A stretch of 64,000 nt of DNA from Escherichia phage HX01, in the sequence record NC_018855.1. One strand, 5' to 3'. Below the pieces are notes generated by a model. It was not told the origin of the DNA, searched no databases, and saw only the letters and a program-made list of their open reading frames with translations. Both the position numbers and the translations under genes were made by a program. Each line of letters starts with the position of its first letter. Within the stretch, counting starts at the first letter, position 1. Shown here in pieces: positions 11,817 to 42,861 of this stretch.

Positions 11817-12452
11817 ATGAAAACTACTCCTATTACTATCGCTATTGACGCAATCATAAAACAAGCTTCTTCTTTGGTCGCTATGGCCAAAGTAATTAGT
11901 CAAAACCCTGCTCGTTATAATGCTATTCTAGAAACTCTTCGACGCCCAGGACTTAGTAATTATGAAAGCCGAGTAATTATTACAGGTGTTGGTAAGAATG
12001 CTAATATTGCAACTAAAGCTTCTGAGACATTTGCTTCACTCGGTATCCCGAGTATGTACTTGAACACTGGACATTATTCTCACGGTGATGCAGGATTCAT
12101 TGCGCCTAATGATGTGTTGATTCATATTAGTCGTTCTGGTAAAACTGAAGAAATGATAGGCGTGGCTAAGCATCTTAAAATGATTCGTCCGAACGTCAAA
12201 CAGATTCTGTTGCATTGTAACCCGGACATTCCACAAGAATACGAAGCTCTTTTTGATTATACGTTCTGTACAGGCATCGCAGTAGAGGTTGATGAGAATT
12301 CTCTGGCTCCGACCATGTCCACTACATTGTTGTTAGCGCTTATCGATACGTTTGCTATCAACCTTTCGTCTGAACGTGGATTTACCTCTAATGACTTCCT
12401 TAAGTTCCACCCTGGCGGTGCACTAGGTGCCATGTTACGAGGCGAACAATGA
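11817..12452 (+). CDS. SIS-domain sugar-phosphate isomerase, arabinose-5-phosphate isomerase-like (KdsD/GutQ type, no CBS domains)
   Basis: 211 aa with motifs matching the KdsD SIS domain by eye: GVGKNANIATKASETFASLG, HGDAGFI, SRSGKT, APTMSTTLLLAL, FHPGGALG. Confidence 0.7.
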   Translation: MKTTPITIAIDAIIKQASSLVAMAKVISQNPARYNAILETLRRPGLSNYESRVIITGVGKNANIATKASETFASLGIPSMYLNTGHYSHGDAGFIAPNDVLIHISRSGKTEEMIGVAKHLKMIRPNVKQILLHCNPDIPQEYEALFDYTFCTGIAVEVDENSLAPTMSTTLLLALIDTFAINLSSERGFTSNDFLKFHPGGALGAMLRGEQ

Positions 12453-12592
12453 AAGCAATAACAATAGGACTTTTACTATTGATGCTTGTCATGACTATCT
12501 ACTGGAGCTTAACGACTCCAGTAATGATTCCGACTCTTATAATCGGATGGATTATGATTGGACTACAAGCAAAGTATGAATGCTTTAACTAG
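12449..12592 (+). CDS. small hydrophobic membrane protein (47 aa)
   Basis: ATG overlapping the stop of the SIS gene; two hydrophobic segments; sits where T4 has imm, but homology not established. Confidence 0.3.
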   Translation: MKAITIGLLLLMLVMTIYWSLTTPVMIPTLIIGWIMIGLQAKYECFN

Positions 12593-12633
12593 AATAGTGT
12601 ACAATACTCCTACTTACCAATGAGGACCACAAC

Positions 12634-14319
12634 ATGAAAAAAGCTGTTATTCTTGGTGCTGGACTGGCAACTCGTTTGTATCCAATAACGCATCATATTC
12701 CTAAGGTGCTTGTTAACTATAAACAAGACACTATTCTGAGCAATTTGTATACAATTTATTCTGACCTTGGCGCAGATGAAATTATTGTAGTAGTTCATTC
12801 AAAATTTGCTGAAACTGTTCGAGCTTATTGTGAGCAAGAAGGGTTCAATGTGACTATTCGTACAGTTGATGAAGCGTATGGTTCTGCTTATGCTCTTGCT
12901 AAATTGCACAAAGATTTAGACGGCCATAATGTAATTGTTAACTGGTGTGATATTATTCCTGATTTTGGTTCATGGTCTTGGAATGTTAACGCAATCTATG
13001 TTAAAGGTGACGAATGTCGATATAATTTCGACGGTGAAAATATCACTAACGTAGGTTCAACAGGTGGTAATGTTGTAGGAATTTATCAGTTCAAAGACTG
13101 GGAATTCTATATGGGTTCTACCGATGAGGAAATTCATGAATACTGCAAAGGACGTGATTTCGTAGAATTCCTTTACGGCAGTGCATTCAATAAATCAGAG
13201 CTTATGAATCTAATTGATTTAGGTGATATGCCTAAACTTGAAAAGGCTCATGAAGTTCGTGAACTTAATCGTAGTTTTAATGCCGTTGAAATTGGTGAAG
13301 AAACTGTAACTAAATTCGCATTAACCGAACAAGGCCGAGCTCTTCAGAAAGATGAGATTTCATGGTATCTTAAAGTGAAATCAGATTCAGTTCCTCAGTT
13401 AGTTTCTGTTAATGAAAATAACTTTGAAATGGAACGCATTAAAGGTAAGCCGGCATTTGAATATATTAAATCCAAATCGAGTCTTGCTCGTCCACAAATT
13501 GTTGATGCAATTTTAGATGCACTGAAATTCAGCACAGACACTTATTTTGTAAGTCCTGAAACTGTTCGTCGTGATTTCACTAAAGAATTCTATACTAAAG
13601 TTATTGATCGTTGTGAAAGTATTCAACCATTGATTGATTCATTTGGTAAAATCACACATGTGAACTACACTAAGATTGGGCGTCTGAAGCCAATGTTGAA
13701 ACAAGCTTTAGAACACCTTATTCGTTATCATAACCGTTCTCAGGGACAGTACTCTGTTATTCATGGTGACCCGAACTTCAGTAATACTATGATTACTGAT
13801 AATGGTGAAGTCAAGTTTATCGACCCTCGTGGATATTTTGGTGAAACCAAGATTTATGGACCAAAATTGTACGACGAAGCTAAAGTGCTTTATGCTGTTT
13901 CAGGTTATGATGAATTCAACGCTAATCCGACCTGGGGACAGTTTACTATTGACGAAACAACTTGTAATGTGTCTATTAACATCAATCCATTAGTTTACAA
14001 ATATGGAAAGATGAGTTCGTTTAACGAGTATCATCATTTGGCAGTGGCAATTATCTGGATTGCATTAGGTGGTTATTTCAAGAATAATCCACTTAAAGCG
14101 GTAGCCGCATATTATAAAGGTATGGAACTTCTGACTAAGCAATTACGTAACATGGGCCGTGTACTTCAGGACGGCTCTATTAGTTATGACGTAGCAGAAC
14201 CTGTAACGGCTACTCTGATTACAAAAAATCCTGGTAAATGGGTACTAACTGATAAAGAAACTGGTGTTTCCTATCGTCCAATCGGTGGCGATATCACTCA
14301 TCAATGGGAACGAATCTAA
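12634..14319 (+). CDS. bifunctional sugar-1-phosphate nucleotidyltransferase / sugar kinase fusion (putative NDP-sugar salvage enzyme)
   Basis: 561 aa. N-terminus KKAVILGAGLATRL resembles the G-x-G-T-R-L loop of sugar nucleotidyltransferases; C-terminal HGDPNFSN...FIDPRG resembles the catalytic/Mg-binding motifs of APH/choline-kinase-like kinases. GAGGA ribosome-binding site. Confidence 0.6.
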   Translation: MKKAVILGAGLATRLYPITHHIPKVLVNYKQDTILSNLYTIYSDLGADEIIVVVHSKFAETVRAYCEQEGFNVTIRTVDEAYGSAYALAKLHKDLDGHNVIVNWCDIIPDFGSWSWNVNAIYVKGDECRYNFDGENITNVGSTGGNVVGIYQFKDWEFYMGSTDEEIHEYCKGRDFVEFLYGSAFNKSELMNLIDLGDMPKLEKAHEVRELNRSFNAVEIGEETVTKFALTEQGRALQKDEISWYLKVKSDSVPQLVSVNENNFEMERIKGKPAFEYIKSKSSLARPQIVDAILDALKFSTDTYFVSPETVRRDFTKEFYTKVIDRCESIQPLIDSFGKITHVNYTKIGRLKPMLKQALEHLIRYHNRSQGQYSVIHGDPNFSNTMITDNGEVKFIDPRGYFGETKIYGPKLYDEAKVLYAVSGYDEFNANPTWGQFTIDETTCNVSININPLVYKYGKMSSFNEYHHLAVAIIWIALGGYFKNNPLKAVAAYYKGMELLTKQLRNMGRVLQDGSISYDVAEPVTATLITKNPGKWVLTDKETGVSYRPIGGDITHQWERI

Positions 14320-14705
14320 TGCACCGTGTAGAAAACATGCTTAATCTTTGTTTTGATGTCGATGATTGTATAACAGAGTGGAATAACAACCGTGATTACG
14401 TGAACTTCAAACCAGACGTCGAAATGGTGACTGCCATTAATGCCCTGTACGATGCAGGGCATACCATAACGCTTTACACTGCTCGCGGTATGAAGTCAGT
14501 CGGTCCTGGTCGTATAGCAATTGACATTCTCCCAAGTCTGATTCAGAACTTGGCAAACATTGGATTGAAGTACCATAATTTGCTAACACATAAACCAGTA
14601 TATGATTGGATTATCGACGACAAAGCTATGCGTCCTGACGAATTCAAAGCTCTTATGAATAAAGGCGAATTCGAAACATTTAAATCATATAAACCGAATC
14701 TATAA
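14319..14705 (+). CDS. small HAD-like phosphatase (tentative)
   Basis: Track start 14304 trimmed to ATG 14319 (TAATG overlap with upstream stop). FDVDD near the N-terminus, TLYTARG, HKP and DWIIDD resemble HAD motifs I-IV, but motif I is non-canonical. Confidence 0.35.
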   Translation: MHRVENMLNLCFDVDDCITEWNNNRDYVNFKPDVEMVTAINALYDAGHTITLYTARGMKSVGPGRIAIDILPSLIQNLANIGLKYHNLLTHKPVYDWIIDDKAMRPDEFKALMNKGEFETFKSYKPNL

Positions 14706-14762
14706 TAATTTAAGTAAGACCTGCAAAAACCATCGCGTCAATTAACGTGAGATGCAAAAAAA

Positions 14763-15923
14763 ATGAATACTTTTAAAATCGGAACGAATTTTGATTTAGC
14801 TCTTCTTGATAAAATCGTAGAGCTCAATAAAACTTATCCTAATAGCTTGATAAACGAAGTATACGGCTCTACAAGAGAAATGGCTTTTGTAGCAGCCAGA
14901 CCTGATTTTAGGCTTCCTGACGTTGACAAAAAGATGTTAGAAGATTATGTTAAACGTTGTAACGAATTAGGTATTTGCTTTAACTATACACTCAACACGA
15001 TAAATCCTGGTTCAAAAAGAGAACTAGTTGAGTGGAAGAAGAAAGCTATTCAGGATTATGTTCAGTATCTTTGGTCAATAGGCGTATGGCGTATTACTAT
15101 CGCTAACCCTGTTGTTATGGAAATTGTTCGTGAAGTCAATAAAGACATTGAGATTGAAGTTTCAACAATTCTACATGTCGATGCTGTAACTCAAATCAAA
15201 TACTTGCATGACCAATATAATATCAAAAAGGTCTGCTGTGGAATTCATAAGAACCGTTCAGTTTCTTTCCTGAAACGTGCAGCAGAGTTTTGTAATAAGA
15301 ACAATATAATATTTGAAGTTCTTGTAAATGAGTTCTGTTCTAATGCTGGTAAAGGGTACACAACACATTGTAGCTATCGTGACTCTTGCTATATTTTCCA
15401 TAGCACCGATGTTACAGTAGATGATGCCAAATCCTTAAATGGATATCCAATGCAACACTGTATTAAAGCTCGTGATACAGATCCATTTAACTGGTTGAGA
15501 ACTCGTTTTGTTCGTCCTCAAGATTTGAAACTTTATAATGATATTGGTATCACTCAATTTAAAGTTTCGGGACGTACAGGTAGCACAGACTACATTTTGA
15601 AAGTTCTTGAAGCTTATGCTTCTGAAAAGTTTGAAGGCAATTTGTTGGAATTGTGGAAGCCTTTAGAGACCATTTTCACTCTTGAAAATGAGACCGAGTT
15701 TTCACATACAGTAAATATTGAAACCTCTTTGTTAGACGGCTTTTTAGAAAAAAGGTGGTTCAAACATCCAGATTTCGATTGTGCTAATGAAATCTGCGGG
15801 ACGACGTGTACATATTGTGAAAGATATTATAAACGTCAGTTATCTAAAAATGGGTTATCAGAAAACTCTATATCTATTATTGATATAACTAACTCTGATG
15901 ACGCTTTGAGGTACCCAGAATGA
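14763..15923 (+). CDS. uncharacterized enzyme-sized protein with C-terminal Cys cluster (C-x4-C-x3-C-x2-C)
   Basis: 386-aa ORF; C-terminal DFDCANEICGTTCTYCERYY; function not assignable by eye. Confidence 0.5.
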   Translation: MNTFKIGTNFDLALLDKIVELNKTYPNSLINEVYGSTREMAFVAARPDFRLPDVDKKMLEDYVKRCNELGICFNYTLNTINPGSKRELVEWKKKAIQDYVQYLWSIGVWRITIANPVVMEIVREVNKDIEIEVSTILHVDAVTQIKYLHDQYNIKKVCCGIHKNRSVSFLKRAAEFCNKNNIIFEVLVNEFCSNAGKGYTTHCSYRDSCYIFHSTDVTVDDAKSLNGYPMQHCIKARDTDPFNWLRTRFVRPQDLKLYNDIGITQFKVSGRTGSTDYILKVLEAYASEKFEGNLLELWKPLETIFTLENETEFSHTVNIETSLLDGFLEKRWFKHPDFDCANEICGTTCTYCERYYKRQLSKNGLSENSISIIDITNSDDALRYPE

Positions 15924-16005
15924 TTTCTAGAAAAACTTTTAACCACCAACTTAACGAAGAGATTTTGACTATTAAAATTAACAGCAACGAACAAATTCTT
16001 AAAAA

Positions 16006-16024
16006 GGCCCATAAGGGCCTTTTT
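16006..16024 (+). terminator. rho-independent terminator
   Basis: GGCCC-ataa-GGGCC hairpin followed by TTTTT, about 80 nt after the stop of the 386-aa ORF. Confidence 0.55.
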
Positions 16025-16117
16025 GAAACTAAAGCGGCTAAAGTGATTAAAGAACCTGTTCAACTAGAATACTAAGCCGAAGCTCTACGTTATATCAACA
16101 TCGCTAAGAAATTCAAA

Positions 16118-16143
16118 TAAGCTTTATGAATTGAGTATATAAT
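16118..16143 (+). promoter_or_regulatory. putative middle promoter upstream of the gene-42-like ORF
   Basis: TAAGCTTTA (MotA-box-like, one mismatch) with TATAAT 11 nt downstream. Confidence 0.25.
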
Positions 16144-16161
16144 AACTGTATTGAGGTAAAC

Positions 16162-16878
16162 ATGGGAAAACATAACACAATGAAATATATTAAAGCCGCA
16201 GATTTTCAATCCGCATTTAAAGCTGTCAATCGTGAAATTTTAGAAAATCCACAGTTCATTACTGATTCTCGTATTGGACGTTGTAATGAAATTGGGTCTA
16301 TGACAGTAGTTGTTGATACCCCTTCATCATTCAAAATGACCGACCCACGTATTAATCGCATCTCTTATGAATATGCTGAAGATTTCTGGAAATTTATGAT
16401 TTCTGGTGGTACTGATGCAAAAGAAGCATTTAAGGCATATCCTAACGTCGCTAAATTTATTTCTAAACCTAAATCAGACGCTTTGCCTGCAAACTTCAAC
16501 ACTTTCTATGGTCCACGAATTGCGGCCCAGTTACCAACTCTTCTAAAAGAACTTAAAGAAAAACCTAACTCTCGAAGAGTTGTGTTCCAAATTCTAGAAA
16601 GTTCTGATCAGGCTTTGCTTGATTCAGACGAAACACTTGAATATCCATGTACTGACTCAGTGACTTATTATATTCGTGATGGTAAGCTTTATACCCACTG
16701 TCATATGCGTTCTCAGAACTGTGCTGTTGTTATGCAGTTGGATTTTTATCTCCAAGGAAAATTACTTCATTATATCGCTAACGAATGTGGTGTAGAAGTT
16801 GGTGATTATACTCATACCATGGTAAGTGCCCATGTGTTTGAACGTGATTTTGATTATGTTAAAGGATTCCTTGACTAA
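16162..16878 (+). CDS. 42: thymidylate-synthase-fold pyrimidine hydroxymethylase, divergent dCMP hydroxymethylase (gp42-like)
   Basis: 238 aa at the syntenic gene 42 position; shares the NPNSRR, CTDSVTYYIRD and MRSQN blocks with T4 gp42 (NPDSRR, CTNTVQYLIRD, MRSND) but is otherwise quite divergent. Confidence 0.6.
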   Translation: MGKHNTMKYIKAADFQSAFKAVNREILENPQFITDSRIGRCNEIGSMTVVVDTPSSFKMTDPRINRISYEYAEDFWKFMISGGTDAKEAFKAYPNVAKFISKPKSDALPANFNTFYGPRIAAQLPTLLKELKEKPNSRRVVFQILESSDQALLDSDETLEYPCTDSVTYYIRDGKLYTHCHMRSQNCAVVMQLDFYLQGKLLHYIANECGVEVGDYTHTMVSAHVFERDFDYVKGFLD

Positions 16879-17777
16879 TGGCTATTTTCCGCGTACCTAT
16901 TTTGAGTATGCGGTCTTATGAAACTGGACAGTATGCTATCCTTAAGGATGGCAACTTCCAACTTCATTTGCACCGTGCTAATCCGGGTGATGTGATTACA
17001 TATCCACGTAATGCATCTGATATTAAAGAATGTGAACGTCTTTTCCCAGAATTTAAGTTTGTTCCATTATGGTATAAAGATAACGCATATAACACTCGTA
17101 AATATTTCTGGTCTGAAAATGAATTTGTGGTTGATTCATTAATTGATTATTATGATTGTGATTTTCTAATCACAGATATCACTGGATATGACGGCACTTT
17201 TGACGTAGAATTCAATTTCAATATCACTGCAGACCCTAATAAACCACGTTTTTATATTGACGAATTCTTAAAAACCGACATGTTGTCTGTTAATCGTTCA
17301 CTTCAAACTACTGTGTTGAATGAACGTCAAAAAGAAGTGCTGGTTAACGCAGGTGCAGATGGTAATAAGATTATCGTAACGCAGAAAGTTATACGTCCTT
17401 CCATCATGCAGCGTCTTGTAGGTGATTTGGCCCCTATTCATCTAGATGGTATTTTTCATCCATTTCGAATTAGTGACCCGTGTTATCGTTTTGAACAAGT
17501 GGTTGAATGCGCAATTCAATTAGGTCAACCGCTTTATATAACCGATCCAAATAATAGCTTCGACAGAAATAAGTATCCTGAAGAAGCACTGATTCGAATT
17601 TTTAAACCAACTAAAACTGAGTACTATCAAATTCTTAAAGGAAGACCGAAGATTCAATATTTCGAAAATCCTGAAGAAGTATTCCATCCAGGTCTTGGCG
17701 AGTTCATCTACTTTAACGCTTTAATTTCTTCACCGTATAATATACCTAAATATGAAGATGTCGTAATCGAGGAATAA
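16878..17777 (+). CDS. hypothetical protein (299 aa) occupying the beta-gt slot
   Basis: ATGG overlap with the gp42-like stop; no recognisable similarity to T4 beta-glucosyltransferase. Confidence 0.5.
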   Translation: MAIFRVPILSMRSYETGQYAILKDGNFQLHLHRANPGDVITYPRNASDIKECERLFPEFKFVPLWYKDNAYNTRKYFWSENEFVVDSLIDYYDCDFLITDITGYDGTFDVEFNFNITADPNKPRFYIDEFLKTDMLSVNRSLQTTVLNERQKEVLVNAGADGNKIIVTQKVIRPSIMQRLVGDLAPIHLDGIFHPFRISDPCYRFEQVVECAIQLGQPLYITDPNNSFDRNKYPEEALIRIFKPTKTEYYQILKGRPKIQYFENPEEVFHPGLGEFIYFNALISSPYNIPKYEDVVIEE

Positions 17778-17778
17778 A

Positions 17779-18327
17779 ATGGCTAAAATTATTTTAGTAG
17801 ATGGCCCAGATAATGCTGGTAAAACAACTTTCATTAATGACATAATGGAAATTAGTGAAAGATATGTAAAGATTGATTTCCCTAAACGAACAGTTGATGG
17901 ACGTTTCGATGTTAAGTCTCGAAATGAAGTTGGCTGTTTCGAAACGATGTTGAATTATTTAGACCCTACTAAGATTTATCTGTTAGACCGTGGATATATT
18001 AGTAACTGGGTTTATGGACGTATTCGACAAGATGCGGACTCGGTTCTTGACGTTTATGAACAGGATTATGTTCGTCTTTGCCAAAACCATGATGTGTTCA
18101 CAATTATTTTAACACGTAACGAAATGACTGAAAGTTTTGAAGACGACCTTATTACTTTGTCTTCATTCGGTTTTAATACAGTCATTTCATATTTTGAAGA
18201 GTTTGCAATTCATAACGAAATCCAAACGTATCAATTACTTAATCATGATGGTGCTAACAAAGTTATAGGATTTAATGCAAGCGAACGTAATGGTTTGATT
18301 ACAGAAATTATCAAATGGGCTCGTTAA
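17779..18327 (+). CDS. P-loop nucleotide/nucleoside kinase-like protein (thymidylate-kinase-like fold)
   Basis: 182 aa; Walker A ILVDGPDNAGKTT and a DRGY motif resembling the DR(Y/H) of TMK-type kinases. Confidence 0.5.
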   Translation: MAKIILVDGPDNAGKTTFINDIMEISERYVKIDFPKRTVDGRFDVKSRNEVGCFETMLNYLDPTKIYLLDRGYISNWVYGRIRQDADSVLDVYEQDYVRLCQNHDVFTIILTRNEMTESFEDDLITLSSFGFNTVISYFEEFAIHNEIQTYQLLNHDGANKVIGFNASERNGLITEIIKWAR

Positions 18328-36702: not shown

Positions 36703-37386
36703 ATGAAATACATAACATACTTAACAATATACACAGGCGATAAGTTGCCACCGTTTTATATAGGGTCTACTTATCTTGATAAACATACAAACAATTACTA
36801 TCATGGTACGGTAAAGTCGAAAAAATATAAACAAATTTATGATAAAGAGATAAAAGATAATCCTCATTTATTTGATTCATGTATTATTGGCGAATTTGAT
36901 ACACGGGAAGAAGCGACGTTTTGTGAGTTGTATTACCAGAAATTGCATAATGTGGTTAAATCTGAAAAATTTTTCAACATGTCTTATGCCACAGTTGATG
37001 GGTGCTTTGGTATGGATGTTTCAAAAGAGTTAAATCCATTTTATGGACATAATCACTCTGAAGAAACTATTGAACTACAATCCGTTATCAAGAAAGGCGA
37101 TCTTAATCCGATGTATGGAATTAAGCGCCCGGAACATTCTAAAGCAATGAGTGGCAAAAACAATCCATTTTATAATAAGAAACATACAAAGGAAGCGCTT
37201 ATAAAGTGTGGGCTTAAAAATCGTAAAAGTCCTGTATGGGAATATGAATCTGCTTTATATAAATTATGGTTAGAATTGGATAAACCAAAGGTTGGGAAAT
37301 TTGCTAAAGAAAGCATTAAACGTGGATTTCCGGAAGGTTCATACAAAAATATAGTCATGCAATTTGAGAGAAAATCTAATGATTGA
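36703..37386 (+). mobile_element. GIY-YIG homing endonuclease (Seg-like)
   Basis: 227 aa; N-terminal YITYLTIYTGDKLPPFYIGSTY (GIY-YIG motif) and C-terminal NPFYG / NPMYG / NNPFYNKKHT repeats (NUMOD3-like); stop overlaps the start of gene 39. Confidence 0.65.
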
Positions 37387-39199
37387 TAATAAAATTGAAA
37401 TGCTATCCGATAAAGAGCATTGTTTGAAGCGTCCTGGCATGTATATTGGAAGTGTTGCCAATGAAGAACAAGAACGTTTCCTATTCGGTGAATTTAAAAA
37501 GGTTAAATATGTTGCAGGTGTTCTCAAATTAATTGATGAAATTATTGACAACTCGGTAGACGAAGCTATTCGAACCAATTTCAAATACGCTAATAAAATT
37601 TCCGTTAGTATTGATTTAAATTCTAATAAAGTGACTGTTGAAGATAATGGTCGAGGTATTCCTCAAGAAACAGTTATTACTCCTGAAGGAGAAGAAATTC
37701 CAGGACCAGTTGCGGCGTGGACACGTACAAAAGCCGGTGGCAACTTTGGTGACGACAAAGAACGTGTTACGGGTGGACAAAACGGTGTCGGTTCTTCATT
37801 AACAAATATTTTTTCTGTCTCTTTTGTTGGCACTACTTCAGATTGTAAAAACGAATTGACAGTTAATTGTTCTAATAATGCTGATAATATTTCTTGGAAA
37901 TCTAAGCCGTCTAAAAACAACGGGACTAAGGTCGAGTTTATTCCTGATTTCTCTCATTTTGAAATGAATCAATTTGAAAAAATATACCAAGATATTACTA
38001 TAGACCGGCTCCAAACATTGGCAGTCGTTTATCCTGGCATTGAATTTAAATTTAATGGCAAAAAGATTCAAGGTAACTTTAAGAAGTTTGCTAAACAATT
38101 TGATGAAGAGGCCATCATTCAAGAACAAGACGGATGCTCTATTGCCATTGGTCGGTCACCAGATGGCTTCCGACATTTAACTTATGTTAATAACATCCAT
38201 ACCAAAAACGGCGGTCATCACATTGAATGTGTGATGGACGACATTTGCGAAGAATTAATTCCGGCTATTAAACGCAAATATAAAATCGACGTGACTAAAG
38301 CGCGCATCAAGGAATGTCTCACTCTCTTAATGTTCGTTCGTGGAATGAAGAACCTTCGTTTTGATTCCCAAACCAAAGAGCGTTTAACAAGTCCTTATGG
38401 CGAAATTCGGACGCATATTAAATTAGATACCAAAAAATTGGCAAAAAATATTTTGAATTCTGAAGCAGTTTTGATGCCTATAATTGAAGCAGCATTAGCT
38501 CGTAAATTGGCAGCAGAAAAGGCCGCAGAAACTAAAGCAGCTAAAAAGGCAACTAAAGCTAAGGTTCATAAGCATATTAAAGCTAACCAATGTGGTAAAG
38601 ATGCAGATACGACATTGTTTTTAACAGAAGGTGATTCGGCAATTGGTTATCTCATTGATGTTCGTGACCGTGAACTACACGGCGGATTCCCATTACGTGG
38701 TAAGGTGATGAATAGCTGGGGTATGTCATATGCTGATATGATGAAGAACAAAGAGCTCTTCGATATCTGTGCTATCACAGGTCTTATTCTTGGTGAAAAG
38801 GCAGAGAATACGAACTATCGTAATATTGCAATTATGACCGATGCCGATCATGATGGTCTTGGAAGTATTTATCCGGCTTTGCTTGCTTTCTTTAGTAATT
38901 GGCCTGAATTGTTTGAACAAGGACGTATTCGCTTTGTTAAAACGCCTGTAATTATTGCACAAATTGGCAAAACTCAAAAATGGTTTTATACTGTAGCTGA
39001 GTATGAAGAAGCTAAAGATACACTGCCTAAGCATAGTATTCGATACATCAAGGGATTGGGCTCCCTTGAAAAGTCAGAATATCGTGAAATGATTCAGAAC
39101 CCTGTGTACGACGTAGTTAAACTTCCTGAAAATTGGAAAGAACTCTTTGAAATGTTGTTGGGTGATGATTCAGAACTTCGTAAAGAATGGATGTCCTAA
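37379..39199 (+). CDS. 39: DNA topoisomerase II large subunit, fused gene 39 + gene 60 form (GyrB-like ATPase + TOPRIM)
   Basis: Track TTG start trimmed to ATG 37379, giving 606 aa. N-terminal ATPase region (LKRPGMYIGS, DNSVDEA, GGxNGVG) and C-terminal TOPRIM region in one continuous ORF. Confidence 0.85.
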   Translation: MIDNKIEMLSDKEHCLKRPGMYIGSVANEEQERFLFGEFKKVKYVAGVLKLIDEIIDNSVDEAIRTNFKYANKISVSIDLNSNKVTVEDNGRGIPQETVITPEGEEIPGPVAAWTRTKAGGNFGDDKERVTGGQNGVGSSLTNIFSVSFVGTTSDCKNELTVNCSNNADNISWKSKPSKNNGTKVEFIPDFSHFEMNQFEKIYQDITIDRLQTLAVVYPGIEFKFNGKKIQGNFKKFAKQFDEEAIIQEQDGCSIAIGRSPDGFRHLTYVNNIHTKNGGHHIECVMDDICEELIPAIKRKYKIDVTKARIKECLTLLMFVRGMKNLRFDSQTKERLTSPYGEIRTHIKLDTKKLAKNILNSEAVLMPIIEAALARKLAAEKAAETKAAKKATKAKVHKHIKANQCGKDADTTLFLTEGDSAIGYLIDVRDRELHGGFPLRGKVMNSWGMSYADMMKNKELFDICAITGLILGEKAENTNYRNIAIMTDADHDGLGSIYPALLAFFSNWPELFEQGRIRFVKTPVIIAQIGKTQKWFYTVAEYEEAKDTLPKHSIRYIKGLGSLEKSEYREMIQNPVYDVVKLPENWKELFEMLLGDDSELRKEWMS

Positions 39200-39226
39200 G
39201 CTCCTTCTGGAGCTTCATTTTAATTT
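39199..39226 (+). terminator. hairpin after gene 39 (weak terminator or attenuator)
   Basis: AGCTCC-ttct-GGAGCT hairpin followed by a T/A-rich tract. Confidence 0.35.
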
Positions 39227-39241
39227 TAATAAGGCTTAATT

Positions 39242-40342
39242 ATGAAAGTTATGTTTATCCCATCTCGTGCAGTCCCATTTAATCCTGACCGTGTACAAGG
39301 TGGTCTTGAAGCAGTACATTTAAATGTGTTGAAATATCTTGTGTCCATCGGTGCTGATATTGATTATATCGGCTTTGATAATGACACGTTTGGTGACTGG
39401 AAAGTTACACACCATCCTGTTGGTCATCTGACTAAATTTAGTCTAGGTATGAGTTATACTATGGCTCGTAAGATTGTTGAACTAGCCGGCATCCATGAAT
39501 ACGATTTTGTTGTTACTATGGAACCGACTAAACTAACCGTTCAGGCAATTAAAGACGCAGGTCTCTCTAAAGTTCATAAGAATTTTATGGCAACACCATT
39601 TGAACCGGTATCTCGTGGCATTGTTCAAATTTGGGACCAGACTATTCAAATTCATAAGAATGGTGGTAAGAGTTATGCTCCTACTAAAGCCTTCCGTGAA
39701 TTTGAACGCAAATATTGTTATATGACTTCAGGTCTGACTGACAAAATTGATTATGATTATTGGCGAGCAAATCCGTTGTTTGAAGCCGAAGATTATCCGG
39801 TTATTTGTTTGAATGAGAAACCTGAAGTTCTTCCGGCGACTGATCTGATTATTAGTGCACAACGTTATGACACTAAAATGCGTCGTACTGATGTTGCTCT
39901 TGAAGCGATTAAAGCACTAGGCGAAAATGGTGTAGGATACTGTCCAAGCAAATGGGCACCACCAGCTAAATATCCTGTTATTATTGATGCTCCACACAGT
40001 GAAATCATGGAACGTCTTAAAACAGCTAAAGCGCTTATTAATACGTGTCCTGACACAGGTACGGTAGAGAATAGTTCTATTGAAGCCATCTCTAAAGGTG
40101 TCCCTGTAATCCAGTTAGTTTTTAAGGATTATCCTCATGCGACATTCGAATACGACCCAGATACTGTGCGTGTAGAAATTGATTCCTCTACTCCTAAGAA
40201 AGAAGTAGTTGCGCTTTACACAAAAGCTGTATTAGAATTCACTGACACATACGAAGCTCGAGTTAAACGTGCTGAAGCAGTATGGAAGAAGTATAACCGA
40301 GATGCAGTTGTTGCGATGTGGGATAAAATCTTCACAGCGTAA
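39242..40342 (+). CDS. putative GT-B-fold glycosyltransferase, candidate DNA (hmC) glycosyltransferase
   Basis: 366 aa; C-terminal region GTVENSSIEAISKGVPVIQL resembles the E-x7-E donor-binding motif of GT4/GT-B enzymes. Inserted between gene 39 and rIIA.1/rIIA, where T4 has no glycosyltransferase. Confidence 0.5.
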   Translation: MKVMFIPSRAVPFNPDRVQGGLEAVHLNVLKYLVSIGADIDYIGFDNDTFGDWKVTHHPVGHLTKFSLGMSYTMARKIVELAGIHEYDFVVTMEPTKLTVQAIKDAGLSKVHKNFMATPFEPVSRGIVQIWDQTIQIHKNGGKSYAPTKAFREFERKYCYMTSGLTDKIDYDYWRANPLFEAEDYPVICLNEKPEVLPATDLIISAQRYDTKMRRTDVALEAIKALGENGVGYCPSKWAPPAKYPVIIDAPHSEIMERLKTAKALINTCPDTGTVENSSIEAISKGVPVIQLVFKDYPHATFEYDPDTVRVEIDSSTPKKEVVALYTKAVLEFTDTYEARVKRAEAVWKKYNRDAVVAMWDKIFTA

Positions 40343-40434
40343 ATCCTGAATCGCCTGAGGCACTATTACACATAAGATGATAAATTATATGGTCTTTAGT
40401 AATAGTGCCCTAGGAATCTACTGAAGAGAATATT

Positions 40435-40635
40435 ATGAGAACATATAACGTGGACTTGGAACTTTTTGATAAAGCAGTGCTCCGGGAATTCCGGCTTATC
40501 CAAAGATTTTTTGATATCGAATCAGCTGAAGCCTTTAAAGAACGCTTTAAGGAAATTCGATATAAAATACAAACCGATACAGCTACTAAAGAAGAACTTC
40601 TTGAAGTAGCAGAAATTTTTAAACGTAACTTGTGA
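40435..40635 (+). CDS. hypothetical protein (66 aa), rIIA.1-like by position
   Basis: ATG ORF immediately upstream of rIIA. Confidence 0.45.
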   Translation: MRTYNVDLELFDKAVLREFRLIQRFFDIESAEAFKERFKEIRYKIQTDTATKEELLEVAEIFKRNL

Positions 40636-40647
40636 TGAGAGAAAAAT

Positions 40648-42861
40648 ATGATTATTGAAACGGCTAAAGAAACGATTATTGGTTCAGGCGGTAAGAGCAC
40701 AGCATTTACTATTCAAGGCAATAGCAAAGTTTATAAGATTTTGTCTAATGACCTTTATACAAACAAAGAATTGGCTTGTGTACGTGAATTAATCACAAAC
40801 TGTATTGATGGGCAAATTCTTAATGGTTGCACTGATAAGTTTATTGTTCAGGCTCCAGGTCGTTTAGACCCACGTTTTGTAGTTCGTGATTTTGGACCTG
40901 GTATGAGTGATTTCACTATTCGTGGTAATGACGAAGAGCCAGGAATTTATAACTCATATTTTGCTTCAACTAAAACATCGAGTAACGATTTCATTGGTGG
41001 ATTCGGACTCGGCTCTAAAGCTCCATTAGCATATACTGATACGTTTAACCTTACGTCTTATCATAATGGTGAAGTTCGTGGTTACGTAATCTACCAAGAT
41101 GACACAGGTCCACAGATTAAGCCGACCTTTGTAGATAAGATGGGTCCTGATGACCGTACGGGTGTAGAAGTAGTTGTACCGGTTAACCCGGAAGATTTTG
41201 AAAAGTTTGCATCCGAAATTGCATATGTTATGCGTCCTCTAGGTGATATTGCAGAAGTTCGTGGTGTTAAAGATATTAAATACTTCCCAGAATTTGATGA
41301 TGTATATTTGGCCAAGGAAGCTCCATGGGGTGAACGTGGTAATATCATGGCTGTTTATGGCGGTATTGTATATCCAATCGGAAGTGTTATTAAAGAACAA
41401 ACATGGATGATGACACGATGCACTACAGCTTATATTAAATTCCCAATGGGTGAACTAGATGTTGCTCCGTCTCGCGAAGCATTGTCATTTGATAAACGTA
41501 CAGTAGCAAATATCCATAAACGCGTTGCAGAAATCGATGCTAAATTGTTCGCTGAAGATTCTAAGAAATGGATTGATTGTAAATACCCACGACATGTGTT
41601 CCGCGAAATTGATTCTCTTGGCTATACCGCTCGTAAATACATGGAAAAGGCCGGGTCTAATATTGAATCACTGAAATACTCTAAAGAACAACTAACTTAT
41701 TCTGAGTTGTACAAACGTTTTAAAATGGGACCTGAGTGGTGTAATCTTGGTGTCGTATACGATATCGTTGAATCCCCTCGTCTTCGTCGTATTCGTGAAA
41801 GTGGTAGCTCATCATCAACCATTTCAATTAACAGCCTGATTGGCATTAACATTAAAAACGTTGAAATTGTTATTGACGATGTTAAGGGACGCGTTCCATT
41901 AATGCGAGCTCTTAATTCAATTGAAATGTCTAAAGACGAGGTTAAATTATCCGGTAAAGTTCCACGCGGTTTTGGTAAAAGCGTACTATTCGTTGACCCT
42001 ACAGACGAAGATGCAATGAAACTTCTGGAACGCCTTAAAGTTATCTTTGATGGCGATAGCATTAACATGTACAAGACTTCAGAGCTTTTACAAATCGTTA
42101 AGCCATGGATTGAAGTCAGGAAACGGACTAATGAGCCTCGTCCTAAATCCCCAAGTGCTCATCGGTTCTTTAAGAATGAAAAGGATGTTTGGGTATCAGA
42201 AGATCTCTTTATTCCAGCGAGTGAAGCTGATGAAATCCAAGGTTATGCTATAGTTCGTAATCGTTCTAATGCTGAATGTCTTGACGCAGATAAAGGTTGG
42301 TTAAACTATGACTCTAATTTCTTGACTCGTATTGCTGATTTGTCAGGTATTAAAGAGTTCACTGTAGTTCGCCCACAGATTGCTAAGAAAGTTCGTAAAC
42401 TTGGTGAAGTAGAATGCTTGTTCGAAAAATCAATTAATGACTATATTACGCTAATTGATAAAGTGGATTATGATGAGTATGTGTCACCAAGTCGTAGAGC
42501 ACAGCCTTATTTGAATCATATTACTCGTAATGAAGAGCTTAACTTCCTTAGTAAGTATTTTAGCTCTAAGAACAAAGAAATCAGTAAAGACTTTGCAAAA
42601 CTCTCAACAGTAAATAATCGTTGGGGATGGAATCGATTCGCAGGTGCTACTAATACAGACCTGAATAAGAAGTTAGAATTGTGTGCTAAAATTTTCGATA
42701 AGCTTAAAGATAATGCTTACGATAATGATGATAAAATGGTTATTGAATTCGAAACCAATTATCATATTGTGTCAGAATACATGGGACGACGTGGTACTCT
42801 TTCCAAAGAACAGGTCGCTCAAATCGTTAAATTCATGAAGGCCGTGGAAGCGGCCAAATAA
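40648..42861 (+). CDS. rIIA: RIIA protein (rapid-lysis / lysis inhibition; GHKL-type ATPase-like N-terminal domain)
   Basis: 737 aa; MIIETAKETIIGSGGKSTAFT...YKILSNDLYTNKELACVRELITNCID matches the T4 RIIA N-terminus; size close to T4's 725 aa. Confidence 0.9.
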   Translation: MIIETAKETIIGSGGKSTAFTIQGNSKVYKILSNDLYTNKELACVRELITNCIDGQILNGCTDKFIVQAPGRLDPRFVVRDFGPGMSDFTIRGNDEEPGIYNSYFASTKTSSNDFIGGFGLGSKAPLAYTDTFNLTSYHNGEVRGYVIYQDDTGPQIKPTFVDKMGPDDRTGVEVVVPVNPEDFEKFASEIAYVMRPLGDIAEVRGVKDIKYFPEFDDVYLAKEAPWGERGNIMAVYGGIVYPIGSVIKEQTWMMTRCTTAYIKFPMGELDVAPSREALSFDKRTVANIHKRVAEIDAKLFAEDSKKWIDCKYPRHVFREIDSLGYTARKYMEKAGSNIESLKYSKEQLTYSELYKRFKMGPEWCNLGVVYDIVESPRLRRIRESGSSSSTISINSLIGINIKNVEIVIDDVKGRVPLMRALNSIEMSKDEVKLSGKVPRGFGKSVLFVDPTDEDAMKLLERLKVIFDGDSINMYKTSELLQIVKPWIEVRKRTNEPRPKSPSAHRFFKNEKDVWVSEDLFIPASEADEIQGYAIVRNRSNAECLDADKGWLNYDSNFLTRIADLSGIKEFTVVRPQIAKKVRKLGEVECLFEKSINDYITLIDKVDYDEYVSPSRRAQPYLNHITRNEELNFLSKYFSSKNKEISKDFAKLSTVNNRWGWNRFAGATNTDLNKKLELCAKIFDKLKDNAYDNDDKMVIEFETNYHIVSEYMGRRGTLSKEQVAQIVKFMKAVEAAK

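Follow-up and report, generated by a model that had tools for sequence, protein, structure and literature searches.

A GT-B glycosyltransferase between gene 39 and rIIA.1 of Escherichia phage HX01, a member of a known family of proposed DNA arabinosyltransferases of Mosigvirus, and its probable role in adding the second arabinose

Arabinose was reported in the DNA of phage RB69 by Thomas et al. in 2018, who named ORF003c as a putative arabinosyltransferase and predicted a GT-B fold for it (PMC6024577). Lee et al. (2026) found that the DNA of RB69 and of the Acinetobacter phage DLP3 carries arabinosylated 5-hydroxycytosine (5hoC), and described the sugar of RB69 DNA as beta-D-Araf-(1->3)-alpha-D-Araf-O5-dC (PMC13326640). 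The modified base of RB69 is 5-hydroxycytosine and not hydroxymethylcytosine (hmC) (PMC13326640, PMC13390438). The ThyA homologue of RB69, gp48, was shown to make 5-hydroxy-dCMP, and the substitution D169N is given as the signature of 5hodCMP synthases (PMC13326640). As a proposal, Lee et al. gave the role of arabinosyltransferase 1 to gp46:47 and that of 'beta-arabinosyltransferase 2' to gp3 (ORF003c) (PMC13326640). The same roles are given in PMC13390438, with the gp46:47 family of 299-amino-acid proteins (GT299) as transferase 1 and ORF003c-type enzymes as transferase 2.

The number of arabinoses varies among these phages. DNA of RB69, NP and Bas46/47 is mono- and di-arabinosylated (PMC13326640, PMC13390438, PMC12923530), that of DLP3 is tri-arabinosylated, and that of the Shewanella phage Thanatos, which has a single glycosyltransferase, is mono-arabinosylated (PMC13326640). 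Supplied with UDP-Araf, DLP3 gp76 and gp77 together placed a further, third arabinose on RB69 DNA in vitro, and each DLP3 enzyme on its own was inactive on 5hoC-DNA (PMC13326640). The GT299 orthologue of Thanatos, TH1_063, formed UDP-xylose in vitro and left DNA unglycosylated (PMC12838424). A Bas46 phage without the arabinosyltransferase Aat is viable but has lost its protection and is reported to be sensitised to a defence system; the deleted gene is not named (PMC13216743).

The DNA analysed here (the window) is a stretch of 64,000 nucleotides from Escherichia phage HX01 (NC_018855.1), one of the RB69-like T-even phages (Mosigvirus). The original prediction placed a 366-amino-acid (aa) open reading frame between gene 39 and rIIA, in a slot occupied by no T4 gene and about 21 kb from a sugar-donor cassette. 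This description holds. The frame lies where it was described (Table 1), the distance to the cassette is 20.9 kb by our calculation, and T4 has gene 60 directly after rIIA.1, at a distance of 54 nt, so that the frame is without a T4 counterpart at its position. ST0, AV114 and other Escherichia phages match the surrounding 20 kb at 95-97% identity, and the synteny (rIIA.1, ORF003c, gene 39) is as in RB69, whose ORF003c (NP_861693.1) is identical to the 366-aa protein at 363 of 366 residues. A search of PDB sequences with the protein gave one match, 9IQZ/9IR0, again with 363 of 366 residues identical. These entries were released on 2025-07-16, and in Foldseek 9IQZ is titled 'phage HY126 glycosyltransferase' (apo) and 9IR0 the same with UDP. 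He et al. reportedly worked on phage HY126 (Nat Chem Biol, 2026) and are the probable source of the HY126 entries. Mahler et al. are said to have dealt with the arabinosyl-hydroxy-cytosine phages Bas46/47 (Cell Host Microbe, 2025). The gene corresponds to RB69 ORF003c/gp3, the proposed DNA arabinofuranosyltransferase of Mosigvirus, which has been crystallised from phage HY126. It is not new, having been flagged since 2018, represented in the PDB since 2025 and treated in several papers of 2025-2026.

Table 1. Features of the HX01 window in the sugar cassette and around the 366-aa transferase gene
Feature	Position	Strand	Remarks
SIS-domain arabinose-5-P isomerase	11817-12452	+	Pfam SIS; RB69p055, 98-99% identical
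Bifunctional NTP-transferase/kinase	12634-14319	+	Pfam NTP_transferase and kinase-like; RB69p053/p052, 98-99% identical
Small phosphatase-like ORF	14304-14705	+	RB69p051, 98-99% identical
Peptidase-U32-like ORF	14763-15923		
ThyA-like enzyme (RB69 gp48), predicted 5-hydroxy-dCMP synthase	16162-16878	+	Pfam Thymidylat_synt; RB69p048, 97.9% identical
Second GT-B protein (GT299), 299 aa, RB69 gp46:47	16878-17777	+	T4 beta-gt slot, between the '42' homologue and uvsX
182-aa nucleotide-kinase-like ORF (RB69 gp45)	17779-18327	+	RB69p045, 98.9% identical, annotated 'thymidylate kinase'
uvsX	18427-19599		
Gene 39, large topoisomerase subunit, fused 39+60 form	ends 39199		Upstream of the 366-aa ORF
Spacer, 42 nt, gene 39 to transferase gene	39198-39241	+	Hairpin and AAGG
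366-aa GT-B glycosyltransferase gene	39242-40342	+	ATG start; orthologue of RB69 ORF003c/gp3 and HY126 GT
Codons for residues 276-290, ENSSIEAISKGVPVI, E276/E281 segment	40067-40111	+	Family-invariant; E-x4-E spacing
rIIA.1	40435-40635		Downstream of the 366-aa ORF; Pfam T4_RIIA1
rIIA	40648-42861		Downstream of rIIA.1; rIIB next

About 150 phage genomes carry the frame with more than 99% conservation, and this conservation, together with the solved structure of the near-identical homologue, marks it as a gene rather than a chance frame. The minus strand of the locus holds short ORFs of at most 74 aa. The AAGG at 39231-39234, 7 nt 5' of the ATG, is likely the ribosome-binding site. Positions 39198-39215 hold a 7-bp hairpin and, behind it, a T-rich run; the hairpin was not significant when compared with shuffled sequences (z -1.3), and an Rfam search of positions 38900-40800 matched no RNA family. 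The base composition of the gene is that of its flanks (GC 0.38-0.40), with no compositional sign of recent transfer.

A Pfam scan gave no family at E <= 1, the GT4 profile included, and members of the 366-aa family have only sub-threshold Pfam matches of the GT4-conflict kind. In PHROGs the protein matches PHROG 8302 over its full length (E 1e-222), a group annotated as 'unknown function'. The T4 a-gt and b-gt proteins gave E values of at least 0.7 both against the window (tblastn) and against the 366-aa protein (blastp). In the absence of a Pfam match, the family assignment runs through structure and one bridging GT4 protein. Structurally the protein consists of two Rossmann-like beta/alpha/beta domains with a cleft between them, and the comparison with GT-B enzymes places it in the GT-B fold, of GT4-like type, as had been predicted. 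That the C-terminal domain binds an NDP-sugar donor is indicated by the title of entry 9IR0, which names UDP, for a protein that is 99% identical. Its nearest structural neighbours include PimA, WaaG and BshA, whose substrates are lipids, small molecules and polysaccharides.

The original prediction had rested on a C-terminal E-x7-E motif. The two Glu residues of ENSSIEAISKGVPVI are E276 and E281, spaced as E-x4-E, and the sole literal E-x7-E of the protein, E86..E94, lies in its N-terminal domain. E276, S279, E281, A282 and G286 are invariant in an alignment of 12 family sequences, and G20-G21, R208, R214, E276 and E281 are invariant or nearly so across the family. By alignment, the E276/E281 segment is homologous to the part of GT4 donor-binding domains that holds E-x7-E. 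A metagenomic protein (P0138) recovered in an exhaustive HMMER search passes Pfam Glycos_transf_1 and aligns with residues 248-352 of the 366-aa protein at 35% identity. In this alignment E281 corresponds to the second Glu of the E-x7-E of P0138, and its first Glu pairs with T272. P0138 is the sole sequence bridge from the 366-aa family to classical GT4 enzymes that the search yielded. The GT-B call was correct; the motif beneath it was merely loosely right.

The 366-aa family co-occurs with the cassette for 5hoC synthesis and UDP-arabinose, which in HX01 lies at 11817-18327 and is about 98-100% identical in amino acid sequence to RB69p045-p055. Functions of the UDP-arabinofuranose donor genes at 11817-14705 are those assigned in PMC13326640. 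The ThyA-like enzyme shares just 24% identity with T4 gp42; nearly identical proteins are present in the PDB as 9IQC/9IR2/9IQU. With the conserved Arg-Ser dipeptide as anchor, its active-site motif is R-S-Q-N, compared with R-S-C-D169 in E. coli ThyA and R-S-N-D in T4 gp42. The D169N signature indicates that the acceptor chemistry of HX01 is that of 5-hydroxycytosine, and the hmC acceptor of the original prediction has to be replaced accordingly, given also the closeness of the enzyme to RB69 gp48 and its distance from T4 gp42.

Both T4 glucosyltransferase sites had been described as devoid of a transferase. This is the case for the alpha-gt site between genes 55 and 47 (1434-2423), where all ORFs are of 107 aa or less, but the slot between 42 and uvsX is occupied by the 299-aa protein. 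Pfam gave no match to this protein; its AF2 model (pLDDT 94.8) has a GT-B fold, and its leading Foldseek matches are MshA, UDP-GlcNAc 2-epimerases, sucrose-phosphate synthase and further GT-B proteins, all at probability 1.0. It is 98-100% identical to RB69p047 and p046. The family is found in 347 phage records, compared with 210 for the 366-aa family, from phages of Escherichia, Acinetobacter, Klebsiella, Shigella, Serratia, Enterobacter, Proteus, Yersinia and Edwardsiella, and is present in all arabinosylating relatives. The 182-aa kinase-like gene that follows it in HX01 adjoins it in Acinetobacter phages too. The 299-aa and 366-aa families were considered as recent paralogues and this was rejected (hhalign probability 0.4%, blastp E > 1). 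The 299-aa protein is the candidate put forward in the literature for the base-proximal (alpha) arabinosyltransferase; no experiment in the accessible literature shows base-directed transfer by this family.

The 366-aa family is narrowly distributed. Among the 210 phage records found by tblastn, 154 have the protein at 95% identity or more and are Mosigvirus of Escherichia and Shigella; the other 56 fall below 60% identity and are nearly all Acinetobacter phages. Searching 5.8 billion proteins by word index returned 5 clusters, the exhaustive HMMER search, over 1.84 billion representatives, about 8 true members, and an IMG/VR scan 7 loci, so that in these three collections the wider family comprises only Mosigvirus proteins, those of Acinetobacter phages and a few metagenomic relatives. 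At all five Acinetobacter-phage loci there are two tandem paralogues (GT366a and GT366b), 42% and 40.5% identical to the 366-aa protein over its full length and 56% identical to each other. The gene order is the same at all five (isomerase, NTP-transferase/kinase, phosphatase, ThyA-like, GT299, kinase, GT366a, GT366b, gp41) and agrees with the order from gp83 down to gp76 of DLP3 in Table 1 of Lee et al. (PMC13326640). Because the homologues of the 366-aa gene stand inside the donor cassette in these phages, the HX01 protein can be placed in the same pathway, and its identification as a GT-B nucleotide-sugar transferase of the DNA-sugar pathway of the phage is supported. What had been predicted, a transferase decorating hmC, stands as far as a transferase of the pathway is concerned; the base is 5hoC, the protein is not the sole glycosyltransferase, and it is probably not the base-proximal one.

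Comparison of these phages suggests that the 366-aa enzyme is probably an elongating transferase which adds the second arabinose (beta-Araf-1,3) and not the first. Thanatos has the GT299 orthologue TH1_063 (48% identity), and the 366-aa family is absent from its cassette and from its entire record. TH1_065 of Thanatos (378 aa), which occupies the position of the 366-aa family in Acinetobacter phages, was rejected as a hidden homologue (hmmsearch E about 1). Copies of the 366-aa family (none in Thanatos, one in Mosigvirus, two in Acinetobacter phages) track the maximum number of arabinoses (one, two and three, respectively), a series that comprises three lineages only. The narrower distribution compared with GT299, the case of Thanatos, the tandem copies and the copy numbers all support the published proposal for the second step. 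That the two transferase families are unrelated in sequence fits a division in which one makes an alpha bond to the oxygen of the base and the other a beta-1,3 bond to a sugar, and the two anomeric configurations of the RB69 sugar likewise fit two different enzymes. No experiment in the accessible literature assigns the second-sugar step to the 366-aa protein, and we count against it that the structural neighbours are retaining GT4/GT5 enzymes while the proposed product is beta-linked.

The pathway may then be pictured as follows. Deoxycytidine would be replaced by 5-hydroxy-dC, with 5-hydroxy-dCMP supplied by the ThyA-like enzyme, and the cassette genes at 11817-14705 would provide UDP-D-arabinofuranose. 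The first GT-B enzyme, of 299 aa, would set alpha-D-Araf on the C5 oxygen. The C-terminal Rossmann domain of the 366-aa enzyme (G20-G21, R208, R214, E276, E281) would hold UDP-Araf, and the enzyme would add a second Araf, beta-1,3, to the arabinose that the DNA by then carries. The end product would be di-arabinosyl-5-hydroxycytosine, a shield of the DNA against nucleases.

The most serious alternative, which we consider unlikely, is that the 366-aa enzyme is the initiating transferase, placing the first arabinose on the modified cytosine, as the original prediction and Thomas et al. supposed, and that the 299-aa protein acts elsewhere, for example in a sugar-nucleotide step. The UDP-xylose made by TH1_063, with no transfer to DNA in vitro (PMC12838424), would agree with such a division, as would the naming of ORF003c as arabinosyltransferase by Thomas et al. 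(PMC6024577), the crystallisation with UDP of the 366-aa enzyme and not the 299-aa enzyme, and the inactivity of the DLP3 enzymes when supplied singly (PMC13326640). However, Thanatos DNA has a pentose on hydroxycytosine and yet the phage has no 366-aa homologue, and about 135 records (Klebsiella, Serratia, Yersinia, Edwardsiella, Proteus and others) carry GT299 without the 366-aa family. The doubling of the 366-aa family in Acinetobacter phages in step with extra sugars also speaks for elongation, and both PMC13326640 and PMC13390438 give the second step to the ORF003c-type enzyme.

It is quite improbable that the 366-aa enzyme carries out both steps, adding first and second arabinose processively, with the 299-aa enzyme redundant or specialised. 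The mixtures of mono- and di-arabinosylated DNA in RB69 and NP are compatible with this in an indirect way, and the activity of DLP3 gp76 and gp77 only in combination indicates that roles within the family are not cleanly separated. The two acceptors differ, however, one being the phenol-like O5 of the base and the other the O3 of a furanose, as do the anomers, alpha and beta; a single active site for both linkages is unlikely, and the 299-aa enzyme is universally conserved. That the 366-aa enzyme does not modify DNA at all and has a lipid of the host envelope, LPS or a protein for its acceptor, as its nearest structures (PimA, WaaG and BshA, acting on lipids, small molecules and polysaccharides) and GenBank labels such as 'GDP-mannose-dependent alpha-(1-2)-phosphatidylinositol mannosyltransferase' and 'VFDB virulence factor' might suggest, is extremely improbable in view of its strict co-occurrence with the 5hoC/UDP-Ara cassette and insertion within it in Acinetobacter phages, the modification of DNA in vitro by its homologues, and the finding that, in the set of 1.84 billion representatives, the family turned up in arabinosylating phages alone.

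With elongation as the preferred role, the enzyme can be set beside its relatives. The RB69 ORF003c/gp3 and HY126 proteins differ from it by three conservative substitutions, and a functional difference is not expected. DLP3 gp77/gp76, Acj61 p076/p077 and Bhz15 CDS0187/0188 belong to the same family and pathway and have G20-G21, R208, R214, E276 and E281 in common with it. These Acinetobacter-phage enzymes are encoded as two tandem copies in the cassette, whereas HX01 has one copy 21 kb away, and they are linked with a third sugar (beta-1,5) that is absent from Mosigvirus DNA. The GT299 proteins (RB69 gp46:47, TH1_063) share the genome, the pathway and the GT-B fold with the 366-aa protein but are shorter and far more widely distributed, and are proposed for the base-sugar alpha bond, as opposed to the sugar-sugar beta bond. 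T4 AGT (1Y6F/1XV5) and beta-GT have no sequence similarity to the 366-aa protein and a different genomic position; they transfer glucose from UDP-glucose to 5-hydroxymethylcytosine, whereas the 366-aa protein would transfer from UDP-Araf to what is probably a sugar on 5-hydroxycytosine.

The bacterial retaining glycosyltransferases of GT4 type (the sucrose-phosphate synthase 6KIH, BshA 6N1X/3MBO, BGluT 5ZER, PimA 2GEJ, MshA 3C4Q and WaaG) are 10-14% identical to the 366-aa protein. They have the E-x7-E, of which the first Glu is replaced in the 366-aa family, which has its own invariant E276. The GT4-type neighbours are retaining, whereas the product proposed in the literature for the 366-aa protein is beta-linked and its acceptor is borne on DNA. 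One may speculate, with considerable doubt, that the 366-aa enzyme is a glycan-elongating DNA glycosyltransferase that forms the beta-(1->3) Araf-Araf bond by means of an E-x4-E pair (E276/E281) on a scaffold whose closest structural kin are all retaining GT4/GT5 enzymes. If this were true and the donor were the alpha anomer of UDP-D-Araf, the reaction would be an inverting one in a GT4-like fold, and the 299-aa partner would be a retaining enzyme on the same donor. This may already be covered by the crystal structures in print.

The value of the present comparison lies in two corrections, namely that the base is 5hoC and not hmC, and that a second GT-B enzyme, overlooked in the original prediction, sits in the beta-gt slot. 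Arabinosylation of 5-hydroxycytosine guards the DNA of Mosigvirus and related phages from attack by restriction enzymes, by DNA glycosylases and by certain CRISPR-Cas systems, and the modification hampers the sequencing and engineering of therapeutic phages. Assignment of each transferase to its sugar would let the modification be trimmed or rebuilt.

The 366-aa transferase gene, the RB69 ORF003c/gp3 orthologue, lies downstream of gene 39 and has a long hairpin on its rIIA.1 side. When gene 39 is started at ATG 37379 it encodes 606 aa, as does RB69 gp39; the ORF list places the start at a TTG upstream of this ATG, which is probably not the true start. Immediately 5' of gene 39, with an 8-nt overlap into the start of that gene, lies an inserted homing endonuclease ORF, whereas RB69 has only a 63-nt gap at this position. 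The GIY-YIG-like N-terminus of its product, together with three NUMOD3 motifs, marks the endonuclease as seg-type. Phage NRG-P0074 has gene 39 separated from the transferase gene by a different homing endonuclease gene. The hairpin has a perfect 11-bp stem (GGCACTATTAC/GTAATAGTGCC), ~15 bp when extended, with a free energy of -27.6 kcal/mol (z = -4.4 compared with shuffles). It is also found in RB69 with one stem change, and had no match in Rfam.

Coordinates of features around the transferase gene, in the arabinosylation cassette and in Acinetobacter phage Acj9
Feature	Position	Strand	Remarks
Bifunctional NTP-transferase/kinase ORF, 561 aa	12634-14319	+	one reading frame
Peptidase-U32-family ORF, 386 aa	14763-15923	+	RB69 gp50 counterpart
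Gene-42-like thymidylate-synthase homologue	16162-16878	+	
299-aa ORF	16878-17777	+	T4 beta-gt slot
Seg-type homing endonuclease ORF, 227 aa	36703-37386	+	three NUMOD3 motifs, GIY-YIG-like N-terminus
Gene 39, uninterrupted 39+60 fusion form	37364-39199	+	
Long hairpin	40354-40414	+	within 92-nt spacer, transferase gene to rIIA.1
Split homologue of 366-aa transferase	L013 (Acinetobacter phage Acj9) 8825-9966		two overlapping ORFs

The arabinosylation cassette of Mosigvirus includes a peptidase-U32-family ORF, for which phmmer (E <= 1e-5) found no counterpart in the Acinetobacter phage cassettes. Gene order in the Acj9 cassette is rearranged compared with other Acinetobacter phages, and of the two 366-aa transferase homologues that Acj9 carries in tandem, one is broken in two, either by a frameshift or by a sequencing error. 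The NTP-transferase/kinase is unbroken in the window but split into ORF052c/053c in the RB69 reference record, in agreement with the published view that the RB69 split is a sequencing error.

The thymidylate-synthase homologue shares only 24% identity with T4 gp42. Its R-S-Q-N motif has Asn at the position equivalent to D169 of E. coli ThyA, the published signature of 5-hydroxy-dCMP synthases, and PDB entries 9IQC, 9IR2 and 9IQU are structures of near-identical proteins. The thymidylate-synthase homologue is followed by the 299-aa ORF and then by a kinase-like ORF, which lies upstream of uvsX. The 299-aa ORF had no Pfam match, and a GT-B fold was modelled for it confidently (pLDDT 94.8). It is intact in the window, whereas the RB69 record has it split as ORF046c/047c, and it matches the protein put forward in the literature as the candidate 'arabinosyltransferase 1'.
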